Under the pieces are notes generated by a model. It saw only the letters and a list, made by a program, of their open reading frames with translations. It searched no databases and was not told where the DNA came from. From Planctomycetota bacterium (lineage in GTDB: Bacteria > Planctomycetota > GCA-002687715 > DRQF01): DNA of 64,000 bases. Positions within the stretch are counted from its first letter, which is position 1. The number at the start of each line of letters is the position of its first letter. Positions 21,501 through 38,092 of the stretch are shown piece after piece. The stretch spans positions 6,634 through 70,633 of the forward strand of contig JBLINQ010000002.1 in the NCBI GenBank assembly GCA_047639315.1, read 5' to 3'. The position numbers and the translations under genes are program-made.

Positions 21501-23057
21501 ATGAGAGCGCCCTTAGATCCAATAAAGAAGTCTCTGCCTCTGCTTTGTGCAGTTCTTCTCACGGCGCTGGTCGCTTGTGGTGAAGCAGCTCACAAGCAGG
21601 TTCCTGGCCCCCAGGTGTCCGCTTCTTCGAATTCGGATCATAGTCAATCGCCTCCTGTGACGGTTGAAAAGCCGAGGTTGGTCCCTCAATCCCAGATACA
21701 AGATCTTCGTAGTCGCGTCGGCCGGGAGATTTCACGGTTAGGCGGCAAGGTCGAGTCTTCTGTGATGATCATGGATGTCTCGACCAAGCAAGTGCTCTTC
21801 GGCCACCGGCAAACGATGGAAGAGATTCCAGCGTCGAACATGAAACTGATCTTAGGGGCTGTTGTCGTTGATCAACTCGGACTCGACCATCGCCTCAAGA
21901 CCAGGTTTGCCATGGACGGCACGATGGAAGCTGGGGTCCTCAGCGGTGACTTGGTCGTCATCGGTGGCGGTGACCCGACTTTCAGTGCGCGTTTCTTTGA
22001 CGGTGACCCAACTCGTCCCATGGAAGTCTTGGCCGAAGCCTTGATCGATCAAGGCTTGACCAGGATCGATGGCCGAATCCTTGCCGATGGACGGGCATTT
22101 GTTGGGCCACGCACAGGGCCCGCTTGGCCCAAGGACGCGGTCTGGAAGACCTATATGGTCGATGTGCGCCCACTGGTCTTCAATGACAATCAGACGACAT
22201 TCAAACTACGTACCGTGGCAGGCAAACCACGCGTTCGGCCCTTTCCGGATATCGGCTACGTGAAGGTCAAGAACAAGTTGTCCTTGACCAACAACAAGAA
22301 GAGCCATTCTGTCGACGTAAGGCGAGGGAATCACAGTAACGACTTCTCTGTTCTTGGTCGTTTGTGGCGCAAAGGAGCTGGATTTGAGACCAAAGCAAAT
22401 GTACACAACGGCTCCCTCTATTTTGTTCACGCATTGCATCGGGCCCTGCGCAATAAAGGTGTCGTTGTCGAGGGTGGGGTCGGTGCTGTTGAATCCGATT
22501 TTGATGTTTCTTCCTTAGACGACCTAATGGTCTACACGTCAAAACTTGAACGCACATTGGCGCCGATGCTCAAGTACTCCCAGAACCTCTATGCTGAGTT
22601 GGTCCTCCGTGTCCTGGGCAATGAGCTTCAAGGTGAAGGTAGTTTTGAAGGCGGGACGACGGCGCTGACGGCTTGGCTCCAAGAGCGCGGAATCTTGGAA
22701 GAGGGCACAGTCATCGCTGACGGCAGTGGGCTGTCGCGCAAGAACAAGGTGAGCGCTCAACAGATGGTGAAGGCCCTCGTTGAAGTGGCTCAAGAAGAGG
22801 AAAAGCGCGACCAATTCTGTGAGTTGTTGGCGCAACCGAAACGCCCTGGCACTCTGAACCGCCGGATGAATAAACTCGAAGGCCGAGTCTTCGCCAAGAC
22901 CGGGACGATGAGTGGAATCAGCGCCCTTAGCGGCTACGTGAAAATCGCCCCCAAGCGCTATGTGGCATTCTCTGTTCTCTGCAATCACGCCCAAATTTCT
23001 CGGGCTCGGAAAGCCCAAGATGCCATCTGTGCGGCCATTGCTGGGCTACGTCCATGA
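21501..23057 (+). CDS. dacB: D-alanyl-D-alanine carboxypeptidase/endopeptidase (PBP4, peptidase S13)
   Basis: Signal/lipoprotein-like N-terminus (LLTALVACG). Motifs are SxxK (PASNMKL), SxN-like (DGSGLS) and KTG (AKTGTMSGISALSGY). Confidence 0.8.
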   Translation: MRAPLDPIKKSLPLLCAVLLTALVACGEAAHKQVPGPQVSASSNSDHSQSPPVTVEKPRLVPQSQIQDLRSRVGREISRLGGKVESSVMIMDVSTKQVLFGHRQTMEEIPASNMKLILGAVVVDQLGLDHRLKTRFAMDGTMEAGVLSGDLVVIGGGDPTFSARFFDGDPTRPMEVLAEALIDQGLTRIDGRILADGRAFVGPRTGPAWPKDAVWKTYMVDVRPLVFNDNQTTFKLRTVAGKPRVRPFPDIGYVKVKNKLSLTNNKKSHSVDVRRGNHSNDFSVLGRLWRKGAGFETKANVHNGSLYFVHALHRALRNKGVVVEGGVGAVESDFDVSSLDDLMVYTSKLERTLAPMLKYSQNLYAELVLRVLGNELQGEGSFEGGTTALTAWLQERGILEEGTVIADGSGLSRKNKVSAQQMVKALVEVAQEEEKRDQFCELLAQPKRPGTLNRRMNKLEGRVFAKTGTMSGISALSGYVKIAPKRYVAFSVLCNHAQISRARKAQDAICAAIAGLRP

Positions 23058-24430
23058 GCTCTGGCGGCCTATTTGACGACGAATTCGAAGAATCCGAGGC
23101 AAGTGTAGATTCTCAGCCTTTGGCTGAAAGAATGCGCCCGGTAGACTTTGAAGACATTGTCGGCCAAGACGAATTGATCGCCAAGGGTTCTCTTCTGCGC
23201 GATTTGATCGATCAAGATCACGTCCCGTCCATGATCCTGTGGGGGCCGCCGGGCGTTGGCAAAACAACGATAGCTCGCGTCATTTCGAAACGCACCGGCC
23301 TCAAGTTTGTCGCTTTCAGTGCGGTGCTCTCCGGAGTCAAGCAGGTGCGCGAAGTCGTGGCAGAAGCGCGCTACCAAAGACAAGCAGAGGGCATTGGGAC
23401 CATTCTCTTTGTTGATGAGATCCATCGTTTCAACAAGAGTCAGCAGGACGCATTTCTTCCTCATGTCGAAGATGGCACGATCGTGCTCATCGGTGCCACA
23501 ACAGAAAACCCGTCCTTTGCACTGAATGCAGCTCTTTTGTCTCGCTGTCAACTTTTCACTTTGGCGCCCCTCAACGCGAATAGCATAGAAGCACTGATCC
23601 GCCGAGCCCTGGCCGAGCCGACTCGTCATGATTTGCCCGAGGGCGTCAGCTTGACCGATGGTGCGATCGAATCTCTGGTGAAGCGGTCAGCCAAAGATGC
23701 ACGGAGTAGCCTTAATGCTCTCGAGGCCTTACTCATGAGAGAAGAGGCGAGAGGACACTTGGGTAAGAAACTCTTAGATGCAGCTTATGTCGAGCGCGCC
23801 TTGAATGAAGGCCGTCTCCGATACGATCGCTCTGGTGAAGACCACTTCAACGTCATGAGCGCTTTTCACAAGTCCATGCGTGGTGGAGATCCTCAAGCAT
23901 CCCTTTACTGGATGGTGCGCATGCTCAATGCCGGCGAAGATCCACTTTGGGTCGCTCGACGCATCATCCGCTTCGCCTCCGAGGACGTTGGTCTCGCTGA
24001 CCCCAACGCCCTGACATTTGCCCTGGCGGCGCGAGAGAGTTTTCACGTCATGGGGTCACCGGAAGGGGAGTTGGCTTTAGCGCAGGCAGCGGTCTACATG
24101 GCAACGGCTCCTAAGTCGAACGCCATCTACGCCGCCTACAATGCTGTGAAGAAAGACATCAAATCAGGGGAGGTCTTCGAAGTGCCGCACTATTTGCGCA
24201 ACGCTCCAACCGCCCACATGAAAGAGATCGGCTACGGACAGGGTTACAAATATCCCCACGACTTCGACGAAGCTGTCGTAGATCAGGATTATTTGCCTTC
24301 TGAAAAGAAGGGTACGATATACTTCGATCCTTCCCCCTTCGGCTACGAGAAGGACATTTCGGTTCGAATGGACTGGTGGAAGCAGCAAAGAGAAAAGGTC
24401 CGATGGCAGAAACCGAAGAAATCGAACTGA
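23054..24430 (+). CDS. rarA: replication-associated recombination protein A (AAA+ ATPase)
   Basis: Walker A GPPGVGKTT, Walker B LFVDEIHRFNK, and the C-terminal MgsA motifs HFNVMSAFHKSMRGGDPQASLYW...YKYPHDF. Confidence 0.9.
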   Translation: MSSGGLFDDEFEESEASVDSQPLAERMRPVDFEDIVGQDELIAKGSLLRDLIDQDHVPSMILWGPPGVGKTTIARVISKRTGLKFVAFSAVLSGVKQVREVVAEARYQRQAEGIGTILFVDEIHRFNKSQQDAFLPHVEDGTIVLIGATTENPSFALNAALLSRCQLFTLAPLNANSIEALIRRALAEPTRHDLPEGVSLTDGAIESLVKRSAKDARSSLNALEALLMREEARGHLGKKLLDAAYVERALNEGRLRYDRSGEDHFNVMSAFHKSMRGGDPQASLYWMVRMLNAGEDPLWVARRIIRFASEDVGLADPNALTFALAARESFHVMGSPEGELALAQAAVYMATAPKSNAIYAAYNAVKKDIKSGEVFEVPHYLRNAPTAHMKEIGYGQGYKYPHDFDEAVVDQDYLPSEKKGTIYFDPSPFGYEKDISVRMDWWKQQREKVRWQKPKKSN

Positions 24431-25227
24431 TTCTCCTGCACATGGAGCGGATCGCCCGAGCCGCCGGCGTCATCCTCATGGATCATCTTGGCCAACTAAA
24501 GGCCGAAGATGTCGACTTCAAGGGCAGTCGTGACTTACTGACCAAGGCCGATCGCACTTCCGAAGAGTTCATTGTCGCCGAAATTCAGCGCATTTTTCCG
24601 AATCACGACTGTCTTGCGGAAGAATCTGGCGATCACAGCGGTTCTAATCCCGCGGAGGACGGATTCCTTTGGATTGTCGACCCTCTGGATGGCACAACGA
24701 ACTTCGTTCACCAGATTCCGATGTTTGCGGTGTCGCTCGGAGTCCTGCACCAGGGAATCCCTGTGGCTGGATGCGTTTTTGCTCCTCGCTTAGATGAACT
24801 GTTCTTGGCGGGGCAAGGGCTTGGGACAACACTGAATGGGGTCTCAGTCGAAGTGAGTAAGACGACTGAGATGATCGATGCGATGCTCTCAACGGGTTTT
24901 GCTTATAAAATTGATACTCTCGAAGACGACAATTTGGATCATTTCGCCCGCCTGATTAAGAAGACTCGGGCCATTCGCCGTTGTGGCAGCGCCGCTTTGG
25001 ATATGGCCTATACGGCTTGCGGGCGATTCGACGGTTTTTGGGAATTGCATCTATCCCCTTGGGATGTTGCAGGTGGCGCGGTGTTGATCCGCGAGGCTGG
25101 TGGCGAGGTCACCGACTTGGATGGCGGTGAAAATTGGTTGTACGGTGGTGAGATCGTCGCCGGAAATGCCACCTTGGCGCAGGCTCTGCGGCAAGAACTC
25201 AGGAAAGCGGGAGAGAAGCAGCGATGA
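24403..25227 (+). CDS. inositol monophosphatase family protein (SuhB-like)
   Basis: IMPase motifs CLAEESG and WIVDPLDGTTNF, plus the C-terminal WDVAGGAVLIREAGG. The start is uncertain (ATG 24403 or 24442). Confidence 0.8.
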   Translation: MAETEEIELILLHMERIARAAGVILMDHLGQLKAEDVDFKGSRDLLTKADRTSEEFIVAEIQRIFPNHDCLAEESGDHSGSNPAEDGFLWIVDPLDGTTNFVHQIPMFAVSLGVLHQGIPVAGCVFAPRLDELFLAGQGLGTTLNGVSVEVSKTTEMIDAMLSTGFAYKIDTLEDDNLDHFARLIKKTRAIRRCGSAALDMAYTACGRFDGFWELHLSPWDVAGGAVLIREAGGEVTDLDGGENWLYGGEIVAGNATLAQALRQELRKAGEKQR

Positions 25228-25628
25228 AAGTCCTATTCCTTTGCACAGGTAATTCATGCCGCAGTCAGATGGCTGAAGGTTTTGGCCGCGCCCTTATGGC
25301 CAAAGGGCACCGCGTCTTCTCCGCGGGTACTGATCCTCAGGGAATCAACCCGCGAACCATCGTCTCGATGGCCGAGTGCGGCATCGACATTGCCGAACAA
25401 GAATCAAACAACGTGAACGAAATTCCGATTTCAGAATTGGATCTCGTCGTTTCCATGTGCGGGCATGCCCAAGAAAACTATCCTGATGAACTGGCTGATG
25501 TTGAACACATCCATTGGCCACTTCCAGACCCAGCGGATGCCAGCGGAGATGAAGAAGAGATCATGCGGTCTTTTGCAGAAATTCGTAATGACATTCGTAA
25601 TCGAGTCGAAGAACTTCTTAATTCCTAA
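25224..25628 (+). CDS. arsC: arsenate reductase, LMW-PTPase family
   Basis: P-loop VLFLCTGNSCRSQMAEG and 134 aa. It has a 4-nt overlap with the upstream gene. Confidence 0.8.
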   Translation: MKVLFLCTGNSCRSQMAEGFGRALMAKGHRVFSAGTDPQGINPRTIVSMAECGIDIAEQESNNVNEIPISELDLVVSMCGHAQENYPDELADVEHIHWPLPDPADASGDEEEIMRSFAEIRNDIRNRVEELLNS

Positions 25629-26214
25629 GTCGCTCTCATGACGCCCCGTTCAGCTGCGTGATGCGACATTCTGTCCGCTGGAAGTCACCCAATTTCCTGC
25701 ACGCTCCCAGCATTCGATAACCTCTATTGTTCCAAAGTCTCATTGGCCTTCACAAGAGGGTGTTCACACTATCCACACGCGGAAAATTTCATGAACGAAT
25801 CGTGAGAAGCAGAATCTGTGAACAGATCCACGATTGAGTAAAATCTACATTTGATTTTTTTGTGGGGAATTCTCCCGTTTTGGAAGAAAGAAAAAGCCGA
25901 TCGATCGAAGGCTCAGCTATCGGTTCTACATTAAAAGAATTTGATATTTGTGACCGAGTGAGTCCTTCGAAAGATCGATGCTTCTCGACCGGAGTCGTTT
26001 GCATTTAAGTCTTCGACAACATTCGGGGAACACTTGAATAGATTCCCATTAATCTGCATGCTTCTGAATCTTTGGGTTCGACTTGCGGCCCCTAAGTGAC
26101 GATTAGTCCTGCGTTCGTGCCCTTTGTTCGCAACCGCTAAGCTGCATATTATCGTTAGTTTCACCCTCTTTGCTCGATCAACACAAACGGCATCCGTCCG
26201 GAGTTCAAAATCCC

Positions 26215-29200
26215 ATGGGTCATAGTCAGATTGTTGTCCGGGGAGCCCGGGAAAATAATTTGAAAAACGTCAACGTTTCGATCCCTCGTGGCTCGTTGAC
26301 GACTGTGACTGGCGTGTCTGGGTCTGGCAAATCATCCCTCGCATTCGATACGATTCACAACGAAGGACAGCGTCGCTTTCTCGAGTCTTTGTCTTCGTAT
26401 GCACGTCAATTTCTCGGACAAATTGAGAAGCCTGCTGTCGACCATATCGACGGGCTCTCACCGACCGTTTCGATCGATCAAAAAACAGTAAACCGCAACC
26501 CAAGGTCGACTGTTGGCACAGTGACCGAGGTCTATGATCATCTGCGTTTGCTCTTTGCACGATTAGGAACTCCGTATTGTCCGGAGACCGGCGAGGAGAT
26601 TCGACCACAGACGGCGGATCAAATTCGCGATCGTCTGTTGAAGGAAAAAGATGGGCGATCCGTGATGGTCATGGCACCCATCGTGAAAGATCGGAAGGGT
26701 GAGTACCGCAAGGAGCTCGAAGATCTTCGTCTTGCAGGCTATTTGCGAGTCCGTATCGACGGTGAGTTGTTGAGGCTCGATGAAGAGATCAAGCTGGCAC
26801 GCTACGTCAGGCATACGATCGAAGTCGTGGTCGATCGACTCAAGGTCGGCAAAGATAAAGCCAGCCGTTTAGCAGAGGCCATTGAGCAGGCATTGAAGCT
26901 CGGCTCCGGTCTTATTGGCATTCTGGATGGCGATGAGCATGCGACGTTCTCATCAAAAATGGTGTCCTTGGCCACTTCTCGCACATTCCCCGATCTTGAG
27001 CCGAGGCTGTTCTCGTTCAACTCTCCGCACGGGGCCTGCGCCAATTGCGACGGATTAGGCATCCTTCATGATGCTGACGAAGATCTGATTGTCCCGGAGC
27101 CAGAAATGAGCATAGCTGATGGTGCTCTTGCACCACTCGGCTCGTCCCAACTGCGCGACTACGGCAATGTCTCGATGTTGAGTTTGCCGAGCATCGCCAA
27201 GCACTACGGCTTCCAGATGGACCAACCTTGGTCTGAAATCGATGCCGATGTTCGCCATGCGATCCTTTATGGTTCCGACGGTGAAGTCCTGCAGCTCAAG
27301 GTGGACTACCAAGGGAAGAACTGGCAGCTGAAGTCTTCGAAGAAGAAGCCTCTGCTCGGACTCATTCCTGGGCTTCGCGACGCCTTTGAGGCGAAGCCGC
27401 ACAAATATATGGAGCGCTTCTTTGCCAATGTCGATTGCAAGACATGCAATGGCAGCAGGCTCAATGAATTCGCTCGTGCCGTTCGCTTTCGAGATCGTGG
27501 TATTGCCGATCTCACGATTGCCAGCATTGAAGAGTTGGCCGCATTCTTCGAATCCATTGAGTTTGAGGGCAATGATGAGTTAATTGGCCGCCCGATTCTC
27601 AAGGAGCTGCTCAGTCGCCTGAAATTCCTTGGTTCTGTCGGCTTGGGCTATCTTAATCTCAATCGAAGTGCCGCAACTCTCTCAGGTGGCGAGTCGCAGC
27701 GGATTCGTTTGGCGACTCAAGTTGGTTCGAGGTTGAAGGGCATTCTCTATGTCCTCGATGAACCAAGTATCGGACTCCATGCCCGTGACAATGCACGTCT
27801 CATCAAGACACTTGAGGAGCTGCGAGATTTAGGCAACACCGTCCTTGTCGTCGAACATGACCAAGAGATGATGGAGCGTTCTGATTTCATAATCGATGTC
27901 GGTCCCGACGCCGGTGTTCACGGTGGTGAGGTGATTAGCGCAGGCACCTATCGTGAGCTACTTGAGGCGGAGGGCTCAGCAACCGGCGATTATCTATCCG
28001 GACGCCGCGTTGTTCCGATGCCAAAGCAGAGGCGCGTCGCACAAGAGGGGCGTCTTTCTGTTCTTGGTGCCCATCATCACAACCTCAAGAAGATCGATGT
28101 GTCTTTTCCTGTCGGCCTATTCTCGGTGGTGACCGGGGTTTCTGGTTCTGGCAAGAGCACGTTGATTGACGACATCTTGAAGCGGGCTCTGAGTGCCCAT
28201 TATCACGGTGCGAAGCAGAAACCTGGCCCACACCGCGCGATTGAAGGATTAGAGCATTTCGACAAGGTTATCGAAATTGACCAAAGTCCAATTGGCAGAA
28301 CACCACGGTCGAACCCAGCTACCTATACCAAGGTATGGGATCCGATCCGCGAACTCTTCGCCAAAGTCGGAGAAGCTAAGACGCGAGGATATGCCAAGGG
28401 ACGCTTTTCCTTCAATGTCGTCGGCGGACGATGTGAGGCATGCTCCGGAGCCGGTGTGAAAACCGTGTCGATGCAGTTCTTGCCCGATATCGAAGTCATC
28501 TGTGATGAATGTGCAGGACAACGCTTCAACGAAGAGACTCTCGAGATTACCTATCGAGATAAGAGCATTTTCGATGTTCTTGAGATGACAGTCGAAGACG
28601 CCACTGAGTTCTTCGTCAATCATCCCAAGATCAAGCGCATCTTTGATGCCTTGCTGTCAGTCGGCTTGGGTTACATTCGCCTGGGCCAAACGGCCACGAC
28701 ACTCTCGGGTGGCGAGGCGCAACGCGTCAAACTGGCGAGTGAGTTGCGTCGCCCAGCCACCGGTCGCACGCTTTACTTGTTGGATGAACCAACCACCGGG
28801 CTTCATTTTCAAGACGTAGAGAAGTTGCTTGAAGCGCTCCAAGGGCTGGTTGAGTCGGGCAACACAGTGATTGTCGTTGAGCACAATCTTGATGTCGTCA
28901 AAGTGGCTGATTGGATTATCGATCTTGGTCCAGAGGGTGGTGATGGCGGTGGCGAAGTCATCTTCCAAGGACCATTCGACAAGATCCTCAAGATCAAGAG
29001 ATCTTATACCGGCCAAGCGCTGAAGAACCACCTCTCGCCACGCAAGTTGAACCGCCGCAAACGCAAAGTGCCGCAAGACATGAGTGTGACCGGTGCCTTG
29101 ATCATTGAAGGTGCATCGACAAATAACTTGAAAGCGGTCGACGTGACCATTCCGACCGGAAGCTTCTCAGTCATCACCGGTCCCTCGGGCAGTGGCAAGA

Positions 29201-32022
29201 CATCCTTGGCCTTCGATACGATTTTCGCTGAAGGCCAACGCCGATTTGTGGAATCACTTTCGGCCTATGCCAGGCAATTTCTCGGACGATTGGAGAAAGC
29301 GCCGGTCGAGCGCATCGAGGGATTAGCCCCGGCCATCGCCATTAACCAGAAGAACGTCTCCAGAAACCCTCGTTCGACGGTAGCGACTACAACCGAGATC
29401 TACGACTATCTCCGCCTGCTCTACGCCCGCATCGGAATACCTCATTGCCCTCTTTGCGCTGAGGAACTGAAGACATGGGCACCCAACGCCATATGGAAGA
29501 AGGTTAAGAGTTTCGACCAGGAGAAAGCACGTCTCGTCGCACCGCTCTATAGTCGTAGCCTTGGCTGTGATTTGGTCTTGGGCAAGGCTTCCGAGCTTAA
29601 GGGTCGCGCGCCAGAATTCGTGAAAGAGGGTTTTCTTCGCGTTCTCATTGATGGCAAAGAAGCGCGACTCGACGAGGCGTTGCCGGCTCTATCCAAAGTC
29701 AAAGAACTTTGGTTGGTTCTCGATCGAATTAAAGTCGATGCCAAAATGCGTAATCGTGTCCTGGAATCGGTGACCGCCGCTTTCGAGCACGCCAACGGAG
29801 TCTTTGGCTTTGCCCCAGTTGATGGGGAACCTACTTGGTTCACCCGAGACCGAATCTGCGTTGATCACGGGCAAACGATCCCCGAGGAACTCACACCTCG
29901 CATGTTCTCGTTTAACTCTCACCACGGATCTTGTCCAACCTGCTCGGGGCTCGGCATGGTGCGGCGTTGTGATCCAGAGCTATTGATGGATGAGCCATCT
30001 AAGCCACTCATGAAGGGCGCGATGACTAGCAAGGTCGGCAAGTTCTTCAAAAGAAAGTCCTACTACCGTAAGTCATTGACTGCAGTAGCAAAACTCATGA
30101 AGTTTGATCTCGAAACGCCATGGGGAGAATTGACGAGCGAGGCACAAGACGCCGTTCTCAACGGAGTTGAGGATCGCATTCCTTTGCGCATGCAGAAGAC
30201 ACGCAAGGGCGAGAGTCGCCGGATGGAAATGAAGGTGACTTGGCCAGGCCTCGGGAGCTATGTCGAGCGGTGGTTTGGCGAAAGCGATAGTGACAAGTGG
30301 CGAGAGGAAGTGTCCACTGTCATGAGCGCCCGAGATTGCAAAGAGTGCCACGGCCATCGACTGCGCCGAGAATCTCTTGCCGTGACCATTGGTGACAAGA
30401 GCATTGCCGAGGCAACATGTTTGACTGTGGCTGAGGCTGCTCAGTTCTTCAACAAGATCAAATTGTCAGCATCCGATCGCCGCATCGCCGAGCGACCATT
30501 CAAGGAAGTGCAAGACCGCTTGCGATTCTTGGTTGAGGTTGGTCTCGACTATCTTGGTTTGGACCGTCGGGCCACAACACTCTCCGGTGGCGAAGCTCAG
30601 CGCATTCGTTTGGCGACGCAAATCGGCAGCGGCCTCACGGGCGTCCTCTATGTCCTTGACGAGCCAACGATTGGGCTGCATCAGCGTGACGTCAAACAGC
30701 TCCTGGGAACACTGGACGAGCTCAAAGACTTGGGCAACACAGTCATCGTTGTTGAACACGACGAGGACACGATCGAACGTGCCGATCATATTGTCGACAT
30801 CGGACCCGGCGCCGGACATCGTGGCGGCGAAGTTGTGTTCTCCGGCACACGCGCAGGCTTGTTGAAGAGCAAGACCTCTCTTACTGCCGCCTACTTAAAC
30901 GGGCGAATGGGCGTTGAAATTGCCGAGAGCCGTCGCACTGGCAACGGTAAGTCCCTGAAGCTGAAAGGCTGCCAGACCAACAACCTGAAGAATATCGATG
31001 TTGCTATCCCCTTAGGGTGTTTTGTCGGCGTGACGGGCGTCAGTGGCAGCGGCAAGAGTAGCTTGGTTGTGAGTACCCTCGTTCCGGCAGTCGAAAAGAC
31101 GCTCAGCCGGATACCCACGGGTCTCGCGCGCTACAAGTCGCTTCTCGGCGCCTCCCATATCTCTGATTTGGTCGTCATCAACCAAGCAGCGATCGGCAAG
31201 ACACCTAAGTCCAATCCAGCCACCTACACTGGTTGTTTCGATCTCATTCGCGCTGTGTTTGCGACCTCGCCAATGGCACGGATGAAAGGGTTCAAACCCG
31301 GTCGCTTCAGTTTTAATGCGATAGGGGGGCGCTGTGAAGCCTGTAGCGGTCGAGGTTCTATCAAGGTTGAGATGAACTTCTTGGCCGATGTCTGGATCAC
31401 CTGTGACGCCTGCGATGGACTGCGCTACAACTCTGAAACTCTTCTCGTTGAATATCGAGACAAAACGATCGCGGATGTGTTGAACCTGGAAGTCAGCGAA
31501 GCGGCAGACTTCTTTGTAAACCACAAGCGTATCGCAAGGATCCTTGGGACACTCGTTGATGTTGGCCTTGGCTATCTCAAGCTTGGGCAGGCCAGCAACA
31601 CTCTGTCTGGTGGCGAGGCCCAGAGGATCAAGCTCGCTCGTGAATTGGCCAGGCGAGTTCATGGGGATGTCCTCTATGTTTTAGATGAACCAACGACGGG
31701 ACTACATTTCGACGATGTTGCCAAGCTCATTCGCGTCCTCCATCGCTTGGTGGATCAAGGACATACTGTTTGCGTCATTGAGCATAACTTAGACGTTGCC
31801 ATGAGCTGTGATCATTTGATTGACCTTGGTCCTGATGGTGGCGATGCCGGCGGCGAGATCATTGCCGTTGGAACCCCTGAAGATCTGTGCAAGGCCACAA
31901 TATCCCAGACTGGGAAGTACTTGAAAACTCATATGACAAAACGGCGCAAAACGAGATCGATCTCAAGAGCGAAGAAGAAAGTCACCAAGACGAAGGGAGC
32001 GAAAAATGGCCTCTCGACGTGA
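26215..32022 (+). CDS. uvrA: tandem-duplicated excinuclease ABC subunit A (UvrA-UvrA single-chain fusion, ~1935 aa)
   Basis: Two complete UvrA units. Unit 1 starts MGHSQIVVRGARENNLKNVNV...GVSGSGKSSLAFDTI. Unit 2 starts near nt 29080, GALIIEGASTNNLKAVDV...GPSGSGKTSLAFDTI. Each unit has two LSGGE(S/A)QR signatures, two DEP(S/T)xGLH Walker B motifs and C-terminal Zn-finger cysteines (GGRCEACSG...C(D)xC). The basic linker is PRKLNRRKRKVPQD. The likely start is ATG 26215, while the track start is TTG 26170. Confidence 0.9.
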   Translation: MGHSQIVVRGARENNLKNVNVSIPRGSLTTVTGVSGSGKSSLAFDTIHNEGQRRFLESLSSYARQFLGQIEKPAVDHIDGLSPTVSIDQKTVNRNPRSTVGTVTEVYDHLRLLFARLGTPYCPETGEEIRPQTADQIRDRLLKEKDGRSVMVMAPIVKDRKGEYRKELEDLRLAGYLRVRIDGELLRLDEEIKLARYVRHTIEVVVDRLKVGKDKASRLAEAIEQALKLGSGLIGILDGDEHATFSSKMVSLATSRTFPDLEPRLFSFNSPHGACANCDGLGILHDADEDLIVPEPEMSIADGALAPLGSSQLRDYGNVSMLSLPSIAKHYGFQMDQPWSEIDADVRHAILYGSDGEVLQLKVDYQGKNWQLKSSKKKPLLGLIPGLRDAFEAKPHKYMERFFANVDCKTCNGSRLNEFARAVRFRDRGIADLTIASIEELAAFFESIEFEGNDELIGRPILKELLSRLKFLGSVGLGYLNLNRSAATLSGGESQRIRLATQVGSRLKGILYVLDEPSIGLHARDNARLIKTLEELRDLGNTVLVVEHDQEMMERSDFIIDVGPDAGVHGGEVISAGTYRELLEAEGSATGDYLSGRRVVPMPKQRRVAQEGRLSVLGAHHHNLKKIDVSFPVGLFSVVTGVSGSGKSTLIDDILKRALSAHYHGAKQKPGPHRAIEGLEHFDKVIEIDQSPIGRTPRSNPATYTKVWDPIRELFAKVGEAKTRGYAKGRFSFNVVGGRCEACSGAGVKTVSMQFLPDIEVICDECAGQRFNEETLEITYRDKSIFDVLEMTVEDATEFFVNHPKIKRIFDALLSVGLGYIRLGQTATTLSGGEAQRVKLASELRRPATGRTLYLLDEPTTGLHFQDVEKLLEALQGLVESGNTVIVVEHNLDVVKVADWIIDLGPEGGDGGGEVIFQGPFDKILKIKRSYTGQALKNHLSPRKLNRRKRKVPQDMSVTGALIIEGASTNNLKAVDVTIPTGSFSVITGPSGSGKTSLAFDTIFAEGQRRFVESLSAYARQFLGRLEKAPVERIEGLAPAIAINQKNVSRNPRSTVATTTEIYDYLRLLYARIGIPHCPLCAEELKTWAPNAIWKKVKSFDQEKARLVAPLYSRSLGCDLVLGKASELKGRAPEFVKEGFLRVLIDGKEARLDEALPALSKVKELWLVLDRIKVDAKMRNRVLESVTAAFEHANGVFGFAPVDGEPTWFTRDRICVDHGQTIPEELTPRMFSFNSHHGSCPTCSGLGMVRRCDPELLMDEPSKPLMKGAMTSKVGKFFKRKSYYRKSLTAVAKLMKFDLETPWGELTSEAQDAVLNGVEDRIPLRMQKTRKGESRRMEMKVTWPGLGSYVERWFGESDSDKWREEVSTVMSARDCKECHGHRLRRESLAVTIGDKSIAEATCLTVAEAAQFFNKIKLSASDRRIAERPFKEVQDRLRFLVEVGLDYLGLDRRATTLSGGEAQRIRLATQIGSGLTGVLYVLDEPTIGLHQRDVKQLLGTLDELKDLGNTVIVVEHDEDTIERADHIVDIGPGAGHRGGEVVFSGTRAGLLKSKTSLTAAYLNGRMGVEIAESRRTGNGKSLKLKGCQTNNLKNIDVAIPLGCFVGVTGVSGSGKSSLVVSTLVPAVEKTLSRIPTGLARYKSLLGASHISDLVVINQAAIGKTPKSNPATYTGCFDLIRAVFATSPMARMKGFKPGRFSFNAIGGRCEACSGRGSIKVEMNFLADVWITCDACDGLRYNSETLLVEYRDKTIADVLNLEVSEAADFFVNHKRIARILGTLVDVGLGYLKLGQASNTLSGGEAQRIKLARELARRVHGDVLYVLDEPTTGLHFDDVAKLIRVLHRLVDQGHTVCVIEHNLDVAMSCDHLIDLGPDGGDAGGEIIAVGTPEDLCKATISQTGKYLKTHMTKRRKTRSISRAKKKVTKTKGAKNGLST

Positions 32023-33757
32023 TGGTCCTCTGATCGTACAAAGCGACCGCACCGTCTTGCTCGACGTTCATCATCCGGCGGCGGATGATACGCGCGAACG
32101 GCTTGCGCAGTTTGCTGAGTTGGTCAAGAGCCCAGACAACCTCCACACCTATTGCATTTCACCGTTGTCATTGTGGAATGCTGCAGCTGCCGGTCTTTTC
32201 TTCGAAGACGTCGTGAGTTTTCTCGACGAATTTTCGATGTTTCCCATCCCCAAGAAGATCAGCCATGACATCGAAGAGGTCATGGGGCGGTTTGGCAAGT
32301 TGTTAATGCGTCGTGAAAACGGCGAGCTGGTTTTGAGCGTTACGCCCGAGCTTTGGGAAGACGTGAGCCAACTGAAGACGATTGCTGAATACATCGTTGA
32401 GACCAATGATATCGGCCATGAACTCATCATCTCCGAAGATGCACGTGGCGAACTCAAGAGAAACCTAGTCCGAGCAGGTTACCCGGTCGAAGATATCGCT
32501 GGTTATGTCGAAGGTGATGCTATGCAGTTTAGCCTGGTCGACACGCTCCCAGGAGGCAAAGATTTCGTCTTGCGTCCATACCAGAATGCCGCCGCGGCCG
32601 CCTTCTATCAAGACGGCGACCGACGTGGTGGCAATGGCGTCGTTGTCCTTCCTTGCGGCGCCGGCAAGACCATCATGGCCATGGCCGCGATGAATCTCTA
32701 TCAAACAAAAACTCTGATCTTGACTAACTCCACGACGGCCGTTCGCCAGTGGGTTCGTGAACTCAAAGAGAAGACGAATCTGCCCCATAGCGAGATTGCC
32801 GAGTATAGCGCGGAGGTGAAAGAGATCGCCCCGGTCACTGTCTCGACTTATCAGATGATCACCTACCGCGCGGTGAAAGACGGTAGTTTTCCTCACTTTG
32901 ATAATTTTATGAAGGTTAACTGGGGCCTCGTCATCTACGACGAAGTCCATCTCTTGCCAGCCCCCGTCTTCCGTATGACTGCCGAATTACAAGCGAGAAG
33001 ACGTCTTGGTTTGACGGCGACGTTGGTGCGCGAAGATGGGCGGGAAGACGAAGTCTTTTCGTTGATCGGCCCGAAACGTTATGACATGCCTTGGCGGCGA
33101 CTCGAAGGTCAGGGCTTTATTGCTGAAGCTCGCTGCATCGAAATGCGTGTACCCTTTGGCAAAGATGATGCTCTGCACTACGAGCATGCCGGACTGAGAG
33201 AACGATATCGCTTGGCCGCAGAGAACCCGTTCAAGCTCAAGGCTCTTGATGCGCTACTAAAAAGGCATGCCGAGGATCGGGTGTTGATCATCGGTATGTA
33301 TCTCAAGCAACTGGCTCAGATTCGTGCCATGACGGGCATCGAGATCATAACCAGCAAGACATCGCAAACCGATCGCGAACGCCTCTACTCGGCTTTCCGC
33401 GAGGGACGAATTACTCAACTTATTGTGTCCAAGGTGGCGAATTTTGCCGTCGACTTACCTGATGCAAACATTGCGATCCAGGTCTCAGGAACATTTGGTT
33501 CGCGCCAAGAAGAGGCGCAGAGACTTGGGCGTGTTCTGCGTCCGAAGAGTCATGAGAAAAAAACCATCTTTTATACACTGGTAACCGATGACACGCGGGA
33601 AATGATCTTTGCCGCCAATCGTCAAATGTTCTTGACTGAGCAGGGTTACCACTACGAAGTGAAACAAGCCAAAGGTGAGTTTCCGCGGATGGACTGGAGC
33701 AGTAGCGAGAAACTTCGCGCAACTGTGCTTAAGAACATGGAGAAACCTGAGGCGTGA
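32006..33757 (+). CDS. XPB/ERCC3/Rad25-type SF2 DNA helicase (bacterial XPB homolog)
   Basis: The N-terminal XPB-type domain is LHTYCISPLSLWNAAAAGLFFEDVVSFLDEFSMFPIPKKI. Helicase motifs are LRPYQ, LPCGAGKT, YDEVHLLPA, GLTATLVREDGRE (the XPB RED motif) and QRLGRVLRP. ATG 32006 has GGGAG 6 nt upstream and overlaps the uvrA 3' end by 17 nt. Confidence 0.85.
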   Translation: MASRRDGPLIVQSDRTVLLDVHHPAADDTRERLAQFAELVKSPDNLHTYCISPLSLWNAAAAGLFFEDVVSFLDEFSMFPIPKKISHDIEEVMGRFGKLLMRRENGELVLSVTPELWEDVSQLKTIAEYIVETNDIGHELIISEDARGELKRNLVRAGYPVEDIAGYVEGDAMQFSLVDTLPGGKDFVLRPYQNAAAAAFYQDGDRRGGNGVVVLPCGAGKTIMAMAAMNLYQTKTLILTNSTTAVRQWVRELKEKTNLPHSEIAEYSAEVKEIAPVTVSTYQMITYRAVKDGSFPHFDNFMKVNWGLVIYDEVHLLPAPVFRMTAELQARRRLGLTATLVREDGREDEVFSLIGPKRYDMPWRRLEGQGFIAEARCIEMRVPFGKDDALHYEHAGLRERYRLAAENPFKLKALDALLKRHAEDRVLIIGMYLKQLAQIRAMTGIEIITSKTSQTDRERLYSAFREGRITQLIVSKVANFAVDLPDANIAIQVSGTFGSRQEEAQRLGRVLRPKSHEKKTIFYTLVTDDTREMIFAANRQMFLTEQGYHYEVKQAKGEFPRMDWSSSEKLRATVLKNMEKPEA

Positions 33758-35787
33758 AACTAGAAGAAGCTCTATCCCAAATCGAAGGTCGCCAACTCGA
33801 TGCGGCCTTGGGTCATTGGAACTTGGACCGTCACGCGTGGCCCATCGGTGAGATTGACCGACGCCGCATGTTGCGCGAAGCATTGACTTCAAAGCAGATC
33901 ATGGAAAAGCGCCTGGCTCAACTGCCATCGCGACTCCGAGACCTCTTGGTTTATGTCGTTCGGACGGGCCTCTGGGCCGACCCATTTGATTTGCGTGGAT
34001 TTGATCAGAACGAGATTCCTGTCGACGACTTCGAGTTGCTTCCCGTTGGGACAGCCCTCGCTGAGCGGGCCTTTTTCGTGCCGAAGCGTATTCGTGGCAA
34101 GTCGAACCGCGGGACGTCATTTTGCATCCCGGAAGAGCTGGGGCACCTTCTGGAGGATGTCTTCAACAAGAGTAAGGGCCCAGTTGACGCTTCTCTCAAC
34201 TTGCAATCGCATATTCGATTCTTAGATCGAGGCGAACTACTCCATCGCCTTTCAGAGCTCGGTCTCGATGATTACCAAGAGTTAGATCACGGTGAACTAA
34301 GAACACGACTCTGCGTACGCGCTTCGATCGACTCTCGCGTCGCACGAATCAAGAACGACGAATTACGCACCCTATTTGACAATTTCACCGAACACGGTGG
34401 CATCTTAGACCCAGGAACTCTGCGTCGTCTTGGCATTGATGTCGAAGCCGCTGAGCTCCAGGAGTGGGGGCGTGATCTCGAGCAGAACCTCCTTGGTAGT
34501 TTCGAATCCAGTGAATTAGCTAACCACGGGCTGGCGTGTCGCGAAGGTTGGCTCGTTATCTTTGGTGAGGTTTCTGCAGTCTTGATGGGTATGGGAGAAG
34601 TCGATCAAGATGAAGCGTCGGCTGATCTGCAGCGCGGCGGCGATTCAATTGCCGACCTTCGTACGGTCGCGGCCGAGATCGGACGTTCTCCGTTTCGGAT
34701 CAAGAAGAGCGGCGAGTATTACAAAGCTGGCGTCAAGCGCATGGCAAAAGACTCACTCTCACCAGGGAAGAGACTCCTTGGTGAAGAGGAAGACCTTCTT
34801 TGGTTCTTGTCCTATTTCAAGTATCGCGAATTTACCGCAGTTGGTCTCGATTCCTGCTTGAAGATGACGCCACCATGGCGCGACATGTTAAGTCAGTCGG
34901 CTGCCGACCAAGCCACTGATCTCTTCAAGTTTGGCATGAAATCTCGTAACTGGGGCATGTCACCGATTCATCACAAGGGGCTACGCGAAGGGCTCATCGA
35001 ATTCCTCAAGGTGGCTGGCGTCGGTGTGTGGTGTGATGCCGCGACGCTCGTTCAGCGCTCTCGTAATCGGTACTTCAAAAGTGCTGTTCGCCCAGAACAA
35101 TCCGTGGTGTATCAAGAGCGCCACAAGAATGCTCCATTTCCGACATTGGCATCTCCCGAACTCATGCATCGCGAATTGCAGCGATGGATCGTGGAAGGCC
35201 TCACTCGGGTCGGCGCTATTGAATTAGCTCGTCGTGGACGCGAAAAGAGGCCATGGGCCATTCGTTTGACACCCTTGGGTGGCGCGCTTCTTGGTTTAGA
35301 AGTGGCAGCTGATGCACCAAACAACGGCATCGCCCTGATCGTGAACCCAGATCATGAGATCATCGCCTTTCCCGAAAACTCCACACCTGACTTAGTGCAC
35401 GAATTGGGCCGCTTTGCGAAGCGCGTCAAAGCGGATTTTGCTCTGCACTACCATTTGTCTAGCGAGAGTGTCCAAGAGGCGGCCGCATCTGGCATGACTG
35501 CTGATGAGATTCTTCATGTCCTTGAGGAACACACGCGGCATGGGATTCCTGAGAATGTCGCATTCTCAATCAGGGATTGGTGCGACAAGCTTGTTCATGT
35601 CACATCCCGCAGGCTCTGGGTGTTGGAAGCAAATAGCGCCGGTGAGATGGACCGCATTGCTGGACTGGCTGAAATCAAGCCGATGATCGTTGGTCGGCTC
35701 AATGACACGATGGTGGAAGTAAACGAAGACCCGAAGGAGTCTGGGCTCGTTAATCTTCTGCGCGATCGGGGCATATACTTTGGGTAG
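33754..35787 (+). CDS. XPB-associated protein with C-terminal XPB-N-terminal-like (helicase-associated) domain
   Basis: GTG 33754 overlaps the XPB stop (GTGA). The C-terminal ~90 aa, ALHYHLSSESVQEAAASGMTADEILHVLEEHTRHGIPENVAFSIRDWCDKL, follows the same pattern as the XPB N-terminus encoded by the previous gene. No nuclease or ATPase motif was recognised in the remaining ~560 aa. Confidence 0.6.
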   Translation: MKLEEALSQIEGRQLDAALGHWNLDRHAWPIGEIDRRRMLREALTSKQIMEKRLAQLPSRLRDLLVYVVRTGLWADPFDLRGFDQNEIPVDDFELLPVGTALAERAFFVPKRIRGKSNRGTSFCIPEELGHLLEDVFNKSKGPVDASLNLQSHIRFLDRGELLHRLSELGLDDYQELDHGELRTRLCVRASIDSRVARIKNDELRTLFDNFTEHGGILDPGTLRRLGIDVEAAELQEWGRDLEQNLLGSFESSELANHGLACREGWLVIFGEVSAVLMGMGEVDQDEASADLQRGGDSIADLRTVAAEIGRSPFRIKKSGEYYKAGVKRMAKDSLSPGKRLLGEEEDLLWFLSYFKYREFTAVGLDSCLKMTPPWRDMLSQSAADQATDLFKFGMKSRNWGMSPIHHKGLREGLIEFLKVAGVGVWCDAATLVQRSRNRYFKSAVRPEQSVVYQERHKNAPFPTLASPELMHRELQRWIVEGLTRVGAIELARRGREKRPWAIRLTPLGGALLGLEVAADAPNNGIALIVNPDHEIIAFPENSTPDLVHELGRFAKRVKADFALHYHLSSESVQEAAASGMTADEILHVLEEHTRHGIPENVAFSIRDWCDKLVHVTSRRLWVLEANSAGEMDRIAGLAEIKPMIVGRLNDTMVEVNEDPKESGLVNLLRDRGIYFG

Positions 35788-35790
35788 AGA

Positions 35791-36198
35791 ATGACCGCAG
35801 TTTTATCCAGAATGCAGAAGAAGGTGCTCGGCTTTGCTCTGATAATGGTGCTGTTATTCTCCACTTGGCCCTACATTCTCGGCTTCGTTTTTCAGCTGCT
35901 CTCTCCGACCGAGATTTCGTGTGAAGCGGAAACCACAGACGAGATGATCGAGCAGTTGGCCAAGGCGACACGTGCGTTGAGGCGAGAAGTGGGCGAGTTC
36001 TGCCGTGAGCATCAACGCATTCCGCTCGCGAGTGAGATCGATCTCGAGCTCTTGGACACAACATGTGGGCCCTTTCATATCGAGTCAGGCCACGCCAGCG
36101 AGTTTTGCGTCACTATCGGGAATTATGCGGCGGAAGGGACTTACACCTGGACATGTCGCGTTTCCGATCCGGAGGGTAAGTGGCACTTCGACACTTGA
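35791..36198 (+). CDS. small membrane-anchored Cys-containing hypothetical protein
   Basis: Starts 4 nt after the upstream stop. It has an N-terminal hydrophobic anchor (KKVLGFALIMVLLFSTWPYILGFVF) and five Cys in the soluble part. No family was recognised. Confidence 0.45.
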   Translation: MTAVLSRMQKKVLGFALIMVLLFSTWPYILGFVFQLLSPTEISCEAETTDEMIEQLAKATRALRREVGEFCREHQRIPLASEIDLELLDTTCGPFHIESGHASEFCVTIGNYAAEGTYTWTCRVSDPEGKWHFDT

Positions 36199-36327
36199 TG
36201 TGTCATGTGCGATTGGCGACGCCGATATCTGTGTGATCCAGGACCAAGCAACTGGGGATGACTTGACTCCTCAGATGCGTGAAGACTATGATTCATCACC
36301 CGTGCCTGGGCGTCTTCGAGGACTTTC

Positions 36328-38043
36328 ATGACTCGAATCTTAATTCTCGTCCTAACCTTAGCTGCTTTGACCAACGTTGTTGGTGGCCTTGGGGTCCTAT
36401 GTATCGCCCAAGTTGAGTTATCAAAACCAGCAAACCCCGCGATCGTCAAATTGCTCACGAGTCCTTATGCCGCTGAGCGCAAGATAGGTGTGAAGTCGCT
36501 CCTCGCTTTGGCAGAGAAACACTGGGAAGAAGAGAGCTTCTTAGATCCATGGCTCAATCATTCAAGCGAACTTGTTCGCCTTGGAGCCGCGAATGTTGCC
36601 GCTCAGGATCTTGATGCGAGCCGTGCCGTCAAGAAGATCAAAGCAGTCATCAAGAAAGAGAAACTGACGACGCGTCGCCAAGAACTGGCGAACATCGCCT
36701 TTGGTGCGGCATTCAACGGTTGGGATGGCACGGTCGATTACTTCGATGACAAAGAAGAAAACGATGAGTTTGCCGCCGCGGCCTTGCATTTCGTCCGCGT
36801 CAAATTATCAGCCCTCGCGAACTCAGGCACCCAAACAACAAACTATCGCGCGGTCGGGAAACTCGCGAGCCTCGGTCCCTATTCGATCCCTGTCTTGGAA
36901 AAAATCGCCTCAGAAAGTGGTGAGGGTTTGTATCAACGCGGGCTTGCTCTGTCTGCACTCGCCCGGATGAACTCACGGAGTTTTTGGGTGAACGACGACG
37001 GCACTTTGTCGGCCAAGACGAAGAAGATGCTTGATGACGGCCCTGAGTACCTCAAGATCAATACGCTGTTTTCGATGGCTTACTTTGGGACGGTAGATAA
37101 AACCTCTGTCAAAGCGATGAGCAACTTTGTGCTGCAGGACGCCTATTCGGCGGAGACCATTCAAGGTGGTCTCTACTACCTGTACACGTTGCCCGATAAG
37201 GAAGCACAAGCGGAACAGCAATACCTTGCTCAAGTAGCCAAGGAATATCTTGATGGTTCCTACGCTCAGAAAGTGAGATTTCACGCAGGCGTTCTTCTCG
37301 CTCGTATCAACGTGGCTACACTTGCCAGCCAAGCCATTGAGATGATCAAGGAATCTCCTGACTTCGCAGGCTATTGGGCTATGGGGGCGGTTCTCAATCG
37401 CGCCAACGATCTGCCTGAAGCCGACCGTGCCAAGACCATCTCTGATCTGATCGGGTGGGTATTGGCTTCAGAGAACTGTGCTCCGCAGCTTAAGGGGACA
37501 GCCCTATGGCACCTCAGGCAGAAAGGTACGAGCTTCCCTAAGGGGGTCACCGTCGAAAAGGTGACCACCGCCATTCATGCGAGCATGGAGAAGGTTCATA
37601 TGGCTAGCGAGGACCCGAGCTATCTGGCCATTCGTGGAGGCTTAGATATTCTCGCGTACTTGAAAGACCCCAAGGTCGACGAGGCTATCCTCAAGAACTT
37701 GAAGCACGAGAGCGAAGCGGTGCGCATGGCAGCAGCGCTTGCCGCAGGCAATACTGGGCACAAGGCTCTCATTCCTAAACTCTACAAAGCCATGAACGAT
37801 GATCATGAGTTTGCTGCTTACGGAGCAGCGTGGGCCCTTAATCAGCTTGGTGACAAGAGAGCGCGCCTTTGGTTCGCCCGTTATATGCTGAACGGCAATG
37901 CATGTCTGATGCGTTCATGCTTAGGTGCCCTTCGTACTGCAACCGGTTTGAAGGTGGGGGAGATAGTACCCACCGATCCGAAGAGCTGGAGAGTACGTGG
38001 GCGCGCTTGGATTTCTGTACTCAAAAAAAATGCGACCCGGTAA
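36328..38043 (+). CDS. signal-anchored HEAT-repeat protein
   Basis: N-terminal TM/signal MTRILILVLTLAALTNVVGGLG. Repeated HEAT/PBS-lyase-like units are present (SELVRLGAANVAAQ, EAVRMAAALAAGNTGHKALIPKLYKAMNDDHEFAAYGAAWALNQLGD). Confidence 0.6.
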   Translation: MTRILILVLTLAALTNVVGGLGVLCIAQVELSKPANPAIVKLLTSPYAAERKIGVKSLLALAEKHWEEESFLDPWLNHSSELVRLGAANVAAQDLDASRAVKKIKAVIKKEKLTTRRQELANIAFGAAFNGWDGTVDYFDDKEENDEFAAAALHFVRVKLSALANSGTQTTNYRAVGKLASLGPYSIPVLEKIASESGEGLYQRGLALSALARMNSRSFWVNDDGTLSAKTKKMLDDGPEYLKINTLFSMAYFGTVDKTSVKAMSNFVLQDAYSAETIQGGLYYLYTLPDKEAQAEQQYLAQVAKEYLDGSYAQKVRFHAGVLLARINVATLASQAIEMIKESPDFAGYWAMGAVLNRANDLPEADRAKTISDLIGWVLASENCAPQLKGTALWHLRQKGTSFPKGVTVEKVTTAIHASMEKVHMASEDPSYLAIRGGLDILAYLKDPKVDEAILKNLKHESEAVRMAAALAAGNTGHKALIPKLYKAMNDDHEFAAYGAAWALNQLGDKRARLWFARYMLNGNACLMRSCLGALRTATGLKVGEIVPTDPKSWRVRGRAWISVLKKNATR

Positions 38044-38053
38044 AGGGTCGCAT
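38030..38053. terminator. bidirectional terminator hairpin between convergent genes
   Basis: ATGCGACCC-GGTAAA-GGGTCGCAT is a 9-bp stem, preceded by A8 and followed by TTCGTCG. The TAA stop of the HEAT gene lies in the loop. Confidence 0.65.
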
Positions 38054-38092
38054 TTCGTCGTCTTCTGATGTGCGCCATTCGGCGCGACAGAC

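Follow-up and report, generated by a model that had tools for sequence, protein, structure and literature searches.

In TFIIH, p52 recruits XPB through a pseudo-symmetric dimer formed by the p52 clutch and the XPB N-terminal domain (PMC6422496), and stimulates the XPB ATPase (PMC7708078). Among bacterial XPB proteins, that of Mycobacterium tuberculosis (Rv0861c) is the one studied biochemically; its cellular role is undefined (PMC3353954, PMC13024598), the role of bacterial XPB was still described as 'elusive' in a 2026 review (PMC13024598), and a 2012 study of the M. tuberculosis protein stated that homologues of p52 and p44 were not found in bacteria (PMC3353954). Archaeal XPB is encoded beside a dedicated partner, Bax1, and works with it (PMC7672443). 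For bacterial nucleotide excision repair, a tandem form of the damage sensor UvrA has already been published in Planctomycetes (PMC8567305). Here we describe a locus in which some of these elements stand end to end. A stretch of 64,000 nucleotides (nt) from a Planctomycetota bacterium (assembly GCA_047639315.1, contig JBLINQ010000002.1, positions 6,634–70,633 of the forward strand), referred to here in its full length as the window, carries three large plus-strand genes with overlapping ends, encoding a tandem-fused UvrA (UvrA-UvrA), XPB and a partner protein that, judged from profile comparisons and its predicted fold, is a full-length homologue of p52/Tfb2.

The combination of the three genes and the p52/Tfb2 identity of the partner appear to be new, whereas tandem UvrA and bacterial XPB were known. 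The explanation that we favour overall, and to which we give about an even chance, is a three-gene DNA-damage operon in which a motor composed of XPB and the p52-like protein would supplement UvrB and UvrC behind UvrA-UvrA. The arrangement is more than chance, because the same three genes occur in the same order in 11 other Planctomycetota loci. The trio and its parts are as follows (amino acids, aa; superfamily 2, SF2).

26215–32022, plus strand: uvrA-uvrA, tandem-fused class I UvrA, 1935 aa (ATG 26215, TGA 32020–32022).
26215–29064, plus strand: UvrA half 1, aa 1–950, the more canonical unit (Pfam UvrA_inter 125.2 bits, UvrA_DNA-bind 69.3 bits).
29065–32022, plus strand: UvrA half 2, aa 951–1935, complete, with a basic C-terminal tail (Pfam UvrA_inter 42.7 bits, UvrA_DNA-bind 69.5 bits).
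31995–31999, plus strand: GGGAG, a Shine-Dalgarno-like site that would serve xpb and is contained in the 3' end of uvrA, read from the sequence, 6 nt before ATG 32006.
32006–33757, plus strand: xpb, ERCC3/Rad25-type SF2 DNA translocase, 583 aa (ATG 32006, TGA 33755–33757).
32030–32401, plus strand: XPB N-terminal domain, aa 9–132 (Pfam Helicase_C_3, 96.6 bits).
33754–35787, plus strand: p52/Tfb2-like partner, 677 aa (GTG 33754, TAG 35785–35787).
35320–35784, plus strand: clutch-like C-terminal region of the partner, aa 523–677 (aligned by hhalign to XPB aa 4–164).

Proteins of the partner family are annotated elsewhere as 'helicase-associated domain-containing protein'. The only Pfam family found in the window protein is Helicase_C_3 (aa 528–644, 54.6 bits), to which the XPB N-terminal domain belongs as well. 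In the profile alignment of aa 523–677 with XPB aa 4–164 (hhalign probability 98.7%, E 3.5e-16), the C-terminal 155 aa of the partner are recognizably paralogous to the XPB N-terminal domain. Pfam Tfb2 (PF03849) has no match in the window protein at E ≤ 0.01; it matches 4 of 36 open reading frames (ORFs) downstream of XPB in the window and related loci at E ≤ 0.001. The partner in locus L073 reaches 40.3 bits, above the gathering cut-off of 34.5, with weaker matches in L011, L064 and L086, and in L078 at E 0.01. When a profile of 31 family members is compared with the sequences of the PDB, it finds the XPB N-terminal domain (about 1e-8), Tfb2 (6trs_A, residues 91–328, E 1.9e-5) and human p52 (8ebt_D, 3.1e-5); its matches to Tfb5, which bear on a candidate C-terminal dimerisation module of the p8/Tfb5 kind, are marginal (E about 0.4).

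The AlphaFold2 model of the partner, predicted from 11 sequences, has a mean predicted local distance difference test (pLDDT) score of 80 and a predicted template-modelling score (pTM) of 0.56. Its top 18 Foldseek matches in the PDB are all p52/Tfb2 chains, followed by XPB N-terminal domains; the p52/Tfb2 matches have E values of 3.5e-9 to 1e-4, a probability of 1.00 and 320–563 aligned columns. The template-modelling (TM) scores against p52/Tfb2 are low (0.23–0.34) because the domains of the partner are flexibly linked, and the likeness is therefore one of domain order and local fold, not of rigid superposition. From the profile matches and the model together, the partner is assigned as a full-length p52/Tfb2 homologue with an overall fold and domain order resembling those of p52 (winged-helix domains, clutch, C-terminal module), which makes the label 'hybrid bacterial/eukaryote-type', given to the locus in an earlier note made from the DNA alone, an apt one.

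The likeness to the XPB–p52(–p8) part of TFIIH (human XPB/GTF2H4, yeast Ssl2/Tfb2) extends over the order of the p52 fold, a clutch-like domain homologous to the XPB N-terminal domain, an XPB of orthologue grade that includes the eukaryote-type N-terminal domain, and an overlap of the xpb and partner genes which, as translational coupling, would fit a 1:1 complex. The differences are that the operon contains no genes for p8, p34, p44, p62 or XPD, that the partner exceeds p52 in length by about 200 aa and that the window protein lies below Pfam Tfb2 significance and has low global TM-scores (0.23–0.31). The upstream damage sensor is here bacterial UvrA and not XPC. A Bax1-like nuclease was considered for the partner and rejected, as Pfam finds only Helicase_C_3 and there is neither a PDB sequence match to Bax1 nor a Bax1 fold match; unlike the archaeal pair, this locus combines a p52-like partner that has no nuclease domain with an XPB carrying a eukaryote-type N-terminal domain. 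In a literature search, which covered few subscription-journal papers, neither a bacterial p52 homologue nor a function for Rv0862c nor a UvrA–XPB operon was found described, and the p52/Tfb2 identity of the bacterial partner appears to be undescribed in the literature searched.

The pairing of XPB with this partner reaches far beyond the window. Of 80 genome loci from many phyla, at least 44 have a gene that matches the partner-family profile no more than 10 kb from XPB, usually directly downstream and then often overlapping XPB by 4 nt. Helicase_C_3 is present in 30 of the 36 candidate ORFs that come immediately after XPB, and 32 of them join one family profile. The partner is upstream of XPB in cyanobacteria, and two p52-like copies follow XPB in tandem in Chloroflexota; the family has a member in Streptomyces (P0132). 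On this gene pairing and on the TFIIH structures (PMC6422496, PMC7708078) we infer binding of the two proteins and stimulation of the XPB ATPase by the partner, and by analogy with TFIIH a complex of XPB and partner is likely. M. tuberculosis XPB, which shares the N-terminal domain and SF2 core (PMC3353954, PMC13024598), was studied as an isolated protein, whereas XPB is accompanied by a p52-like gene in many phyla; no linkage to UvrA is reported for mycobacteria.

Several variations on the pair were observed. The tandem partner paralogues (L052, 11840–13783 and 13780–16002; L065, 11766–13688 and 13691–15922) suggest a larger complex in some phyla. Some relatives of the partner have a C-terminal WYL domain (L014, 11700–13517; L037, 1884–3887; P0129/P0130), a ligand- or single-stranded-DNA-sensing domain of damage-response regulators, and others an N-terminal SWIM zinc finger (L060, 11715–13991; L023, 7807–9390). 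Contigs of archaeal metagenome-assembled genomes (L044, Thorarchaeota; L054 and L066, uncultured archaea) encode a bacterial-type XPB about 54–55% identical to that of the window, with a partner-family ORF 2–4 kb downstream of XPB, and they may bear on how the XPB–p52 pair of eukaryotes arose. In a Hydrogenedentes locus (L035, 11661–14876) the gene after XPB is not p52-like and encodes a 1071-aa AddB-like/UvrD-like helicase-nuclease (PDDEXK_1, ADDB_N, UvrD-helicase). Among 112 flanking ORFs outside the trio clade, no family recurs beside XPB except extra Helicase_C_3 proteins; apart from UvrA, no recurrent neighbour of XPB that would be informative about function was found.

The middle gene is assigned to XPB by a curated equivalog model and by its motifs. 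It matches NCBIfam NF045503 ('DNA repair helicase XPB') with 808.3 bits (cut-off 610) over model positions 1–547 of 548, contains the Pfam families Helicase_C_3, ResIII and ERCC3_RAD25_C (150 bits), and its translation carries the motifs GAGKT, YDEVH, LVREDGRE (RED) and QRLGRVLR; translocase activity is predicted. Human XPB (8ebt_A) matches residues 7–556 with an E value of 1e-78 and, since this alignment begins at residue 7, the eukaryote-type N-terminal domain is present. By analogy with TFIIH the partner is predicted to dock on this domain. Bacterial XPB had been described in the earlier note as only sporadic, and this does not hold: more than 8,000 protein clusters match the family at E ≤ 1e-20, a scan of species-representative genomes gives at least 600 XPB stretches, and the matches listed come from Planctomycetota, Chloroflexota, Cyanobacteria, Bacillota, Spirochaetota, Acidobacteriota, Gemmatimonadota and Fibrobacterota and, in part, from archaea. 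Far from being sporadic, the protein is widespread among bacteria.

The first gene (NCBI record MFT7616502.1, excinuclease ABC subunit A, with the identical start at ATG 26215) comprises two complete UvrA units. The UvrA equivalog NF001503 of NCBIfam matches it along two full-length stretches with 2564 bits (cut-off 1147) and TIGR00630 scores 2470 bits (cut-off 730). The two halves can both be aligned over their whole length with UvrAs of known structure, half 1 with 2r6f (1107 bits) and half 2 with 9gxk (956 bits); against Geobacillus UvrA, the sequence of which was rebuilt from an alignment, they score 1103 and 927 bits, respectively. Four Walker A motifs (GxSGSGKS/T; aa 33, 641, 989 and 1608) and four LSGGE signature motifs (aa 489, 830, 1456 and 1797) are present, and the UvrB-binding and insertion/DNA-binding domains are above Pfam threshold in both halves (cut-off for UvrA_inter, the UvrB-binding domain, 23.3 bits). 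By these sequence criteria the protein is a class I UvrA, predicted to bind damage and load UvrB, and would be the single-chain equivalent of the UvrA dimer. As in canonical UvrA2–UvrB2, both units keep their ATPase sites, zinc modules, insertion domain and UvrB-binding domain; in contrast to it, the two units are covalently joined, the UvrB-binding domain of the second has diverged, and xpb and a p52-like gene follow directly instead of being unlinked. The arginine that corresponds to Geobacillus R216 is conserved in either half throughout the seven proteins compared, which would speak against a replacement of UvrB.

The second UvrB-binding domain is the more diverged of the two, with 31% identity among orthologues versus 48% for that of half 1, and in XPB-linked tandem UvrAs it scores 43–63 bits versus 118–125 for the first. 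We considered that it might have been re-purposed for XPB and rejected this: there is no clean correlation with linkage, because the tandem UvrA of L089, which is not linked to XPB, has the same asymmetry between its halves. Two forms of direct fusion between UvrA and XPB were likewise discarded. The long frames upstream of XPB in L027, L036, L042 and L063, candidates for a 'Rosetta stone' fusion, are out of the uvrA frame, and in UvrAs of 2334 and 2343 aa Pfam gives only UvrA/ABC and generic P-loop families, with no helicase or XPB domain.

Tandem UvrA itself is common, and it is neither new nor special to this locus. Two complete uvrA units per ORF are published for Planctomycetes (PMC8567305), as here; when the junction region was used for an exhaustive search, a length of 1560–2343 aa was seen in at least 130 of the 150 best cluster representatives; and such proteins often have no adjoining XPB. 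Four tandem loci (L089–L092, one of Spirochaetota) have no XPB adjoining and thus differ from the window and its 11 relatives, which have the operon with xpb and the p52-like gene. The long UvrA of Chlamydia has an architecture of the same kind, but the window protein scores 1396 bits against its model PRK00635 (1809 positions), below the cut-off of 3054, and is not a member of that equivalog. Double UvrAs of other lengths were also seen. P0136 (2334 aa) and P0143 (L092, 6001–13032; 2343 aa) extend about 400 aa beyond the double UvrA unit, and in L092 about 370 residues C-terminal of the second unit have no significant Pfam match. A second size class of about 1560–1680 aa (P0204–P0280, 7 matched stretches) is about 300 aa shorter than full tandem UvrA, and one unit in it may be without the UvrB-binding or insertion domain.

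The three genes are very probably a single operon, judging by their common strand, their overlapping termini and the lack of an internal terminator or promoter beyond chance. The earlier note's account of the junctions is borne out by the ORF map: the end of uvrA overlaps xpb by 17 nt, with GGGAG where it was claimed to be, and xpb overlaps the partner by 4 nt in a GTGA that joins the partner start (GTG 33754) to the xpb stop (TGA). The partner start is supported by the proteins of relatives, which align from its residue 1. Terminator-like sites number 14, versus 12.9 expected from shuffling, none of them strong inside the trio; promoter and terminator matches within the trio do not exceed the shuffled expectation, and the only good promoter-like site (36263–36292) lies before a gene for a HEAT-repeat protein. 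No RNA genes were found in or near the locus by Rfam and tRNA scans. Also as claimed before, neither uvrB nor uvrC is in the window, in which all ORFs of at least 480 aa were assigned to other families. Two features flank the trio.

25629–26214, no strand assigned: intergenic region 5' of uvrA-uvrA, 586 nt, presumed promoter and 5' untranslated region, the only long non-coding gap ahead of the trio.
35791–36198, plus strand: small ORF, 135 aa, with an N-terminal hydrophobic helix; its ATG is 3 nt past the partner TAG.

The upstream gap has a GC content of 0.46, versus about 0.52 for the window, and we place the promoter of the trio there by inference; a consensus scan found no sigma-70-like site inside it, and among the regions upstream of uvrA in eight loci no gapped palindromes or 8-mers are common beyond pairs of loci. 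The small ORF does start immediately after the partner, as the earlier note had it, but its place in the module did not stand. It is a singleton cluster (NCBI 'hypothetical protein' MFT7616505.1) that has no family match and no tblastn match in any related locus, and it is missing at the equivalent position in L001 and L008. Being a singleton that has no homologue in related loci, it is not counted in the module, probably lies outside it and may be lineage-specific or spurious.

The order tandem uvrA, xpb, p52-like gene is found in 12 Planctomycetota loci, the window included: the others belong to the window clade (L001, L004 and L008), to Phycisphaerales (L015, L027 and L042) and to unclassified Planctomycetota (L030, L036, L051, L063 and L088), so that the trio clade consists of Phycisphaerae-type lineages and the window clade. 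The clade is deep, with identities across the trio loci down to about 52% for XPB and about 24% for the partner, and the objection that the order has no synteny in related genomes fails. Wherever the gene is complete, the XPB-linked uvrA is of double length. The overlap of the uvrA stop with the xpb start is kept in 10 of the 11 related loci, being 4 nt in eight (in L015 ambiguous between start candidates), 14 nt in L001 and 17 nt in L008 as in the window; the exception is L004, with a 38-nt gap. In trees of the two UvrA halves all XPB-linked proteins, including those of the window clade, form one clade per half, and the linkage would therefore have a single old origin. The window clade and the Phycisphaerae-type group are not united in a neighbour-joining tree of XPB. 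Read in this way, the synteny would record one rearrangement, retained long with tight coupling, that joined two families tied to excision repair. It is good evidence for co-transcription and moderate evidence that UvrA and XPB share a pathway.

The surroundings of the trio were also surveyed. Genes for an S13 D-Ala-D-Ala carboxypeptidase and an inositol monophosphatase lie upstream of uvrA in the window (21501–25628) and in L015, L027, L030 and L088; in the window clade a RarA/MgsA gene (23054–24430) stands between the two, sharing 55 nt with the inositol monophosphatase ORF. Downstream, on the minus strand (38093–40384), is a gene for a 763-aa protein of the GreA/GreB family (L001, 14392–16650; L004, 5854–8091) with an N-terminal extension of about 590 aa, for relatives of which Pfam HTH_GRAD/GRAD_C is on record. 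This GreA-like gene and the HEAT-repeat gene are conserved beside the operon only in the window clade. Between the two, which are convergent, is a strong 12-bp stem-loop with T-runs on both sides (38027–38056) that looks like a bidirectional terminator.

In the mechanism that we favour, a single transcript would start in the long intergenic region 5' of uvrA, and the stop/start overlaps would couple translation of the three genes. The first product would be the ordinary sensor of nucleotide excision repair made as one chain, in which there are four ATPase sites and two each of the UvrB-binding and insertion domains. The second and third would be the two subunits of a motor that has its homologue in the XPB–p52 'bottom lobe' of TFIIH, XPB acting as a double-strand DNA translocase and the partner as a p52/Tfb2-like scaffold, the clutch-like domain of which would pair with the homologous XPB N-terminal domain and tune the XPB ATPase. 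Once UvrA-UvrA has found a lesion, the motor may open or remodel the DNA at the same sites, supplementing the classical UvrB and UvrC steps and not replacing them. XPB is more likely to supplement UvrB than to replace it because both UvrA halves keep their UvrB-binding domains. Real cooperation of the motor with UvrA is held tentatively, at a little under an even chance. That an ancient bacterial XPB–p52 motor, the core of the TFIIH 'bottom lobe', was wired to UvrA in a Planctomycetota clade, with UvrA-UvrA recruiting the motor to open lesions, is a bolder proposal that we consider rather doubtful.

A number of observations weigh against such cooperation and argue for a plainer account, in which there is co-expression or inherited gene order only. 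UvrA-UvrA would then act with UvrB and UvrC, the motor would have a general job of its own, the one that it has in other phyla, and there would be no hand-off or contact between UvrA and XPB; the pair would have landed after uvrA once and stayed there through stable synteny or through convenient joint damage-inducible expression. XPB and its partner are self-contained, with variable neighbours in other phyla, and they are not beside uvrA in Gemmatales, Planctomycetales or any other phylum sampled, while tandem UvrA occurs with no XPB in L089–L092; because the pair is mostly unlinked to uvrA and tandem UvrA occurs without it, the motor would have a function independent of UvrA adjacency. The genes seem to have become linked in a single evolutionary event, the trees pointing to one origin, and both UvrB-binding domains are retained. 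The unrelated flanks are partly syntenic too, upstream with the S13 peptidase and the inositol monophosphatase and downstream, in Phycisphaerae-type loci, with thiamine genes, tsaE and a gene for an extracytoplasmic function (ECF) sigma factor; as adjacent unrelated genes share the synteny, a functional hand-off from UvrA is a matter of interpretation only. An overlap does not guarantee a common pathway either, since the partner gene of L088 shares 8 nt with a thiamine gene that is unrelated to it. No operator or SOS-like motif common to the eight uvrA upstream regions was found. Set against this account are the uvrA/xpb overlap, which persists in 10 of the 11 related loci although the proteins have diverged by roughly 50%, the flanks, which differ between the window clade and the Phycisphaerae-type clade, and the a priori improbability of chance adjacency of two proteins from excision-repair families. 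We regard it as a serious possibility, with a probability of around a third.

A role outside repair is very unlikely. The motor would in that case serve transcription, by opening promoters or the nucleoid, or anti-phage defence, and its position after uvrA would be irrelevant. The eukaryotic XPB–p52 pair also opens promoters (PMC6422496) and a gene for a GreA-like elongation factor is nearby in the window clade, but that gene runs in the opposite direction and is conserved in the window clade only, and no transcription-factor family is recurrent beside XPB in other phyla. An anti-phage system was tried with PADLOC and rejected: the helicase core of XPB matches the defence helicase PbeA generically, but these matches are confined to the SF2 core and the partner has no match.

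Least probable of all, and already improbable on the UvrA sequence, is the replacement proposed in the earlier note, in which XPB and its partner would take the role of UvrB as the verifying or opening helicase after a single-chain UvrA dimer: it would suit the absence of uvrB and uvrC from the 64-kb window and the weaker, less conserved second UvrB-binding domain of XPB-linked proteins, but that domain is above threshold in both halves, the unlinked UvrA of L089 is equally asymmetric, the tandem-UvrA planctomycete Tuwongella immobilis expresses UvrA, UvrB, UvrC and UvrD (PMC8567305), XPB is a duplex translocase unlike the lesion-verifying helicases UvrB or XPD (PMC7708078), and the operon encodes no nuclease.

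The favoured three-gene operon, with the motor as a supplement to UvrB and UvrC, bears on bacterial XPB in general. In most cases the gene for XPB comes with one for a p52/Tfb2-like protein, which suggests a heterodimer of the XPB–p52 kind as the active enzyme, and the bacterial partner implies that the XPB–p52 sub-module predates eukaryotes. In one clade, the trio gives bacterial XPB a pathway context that points to excision repair. If the motor is indeed wired to UvrA, the locus would be a genuine bacterial/eukaryote-type hybrid of excision repair, and biochemistry on XPB alone would have missed an obligate partner. If the link is one of co-expression only, the p52-like partner would still matter for the evolution of TFIIH and for the enzymology of bacterial XPB.

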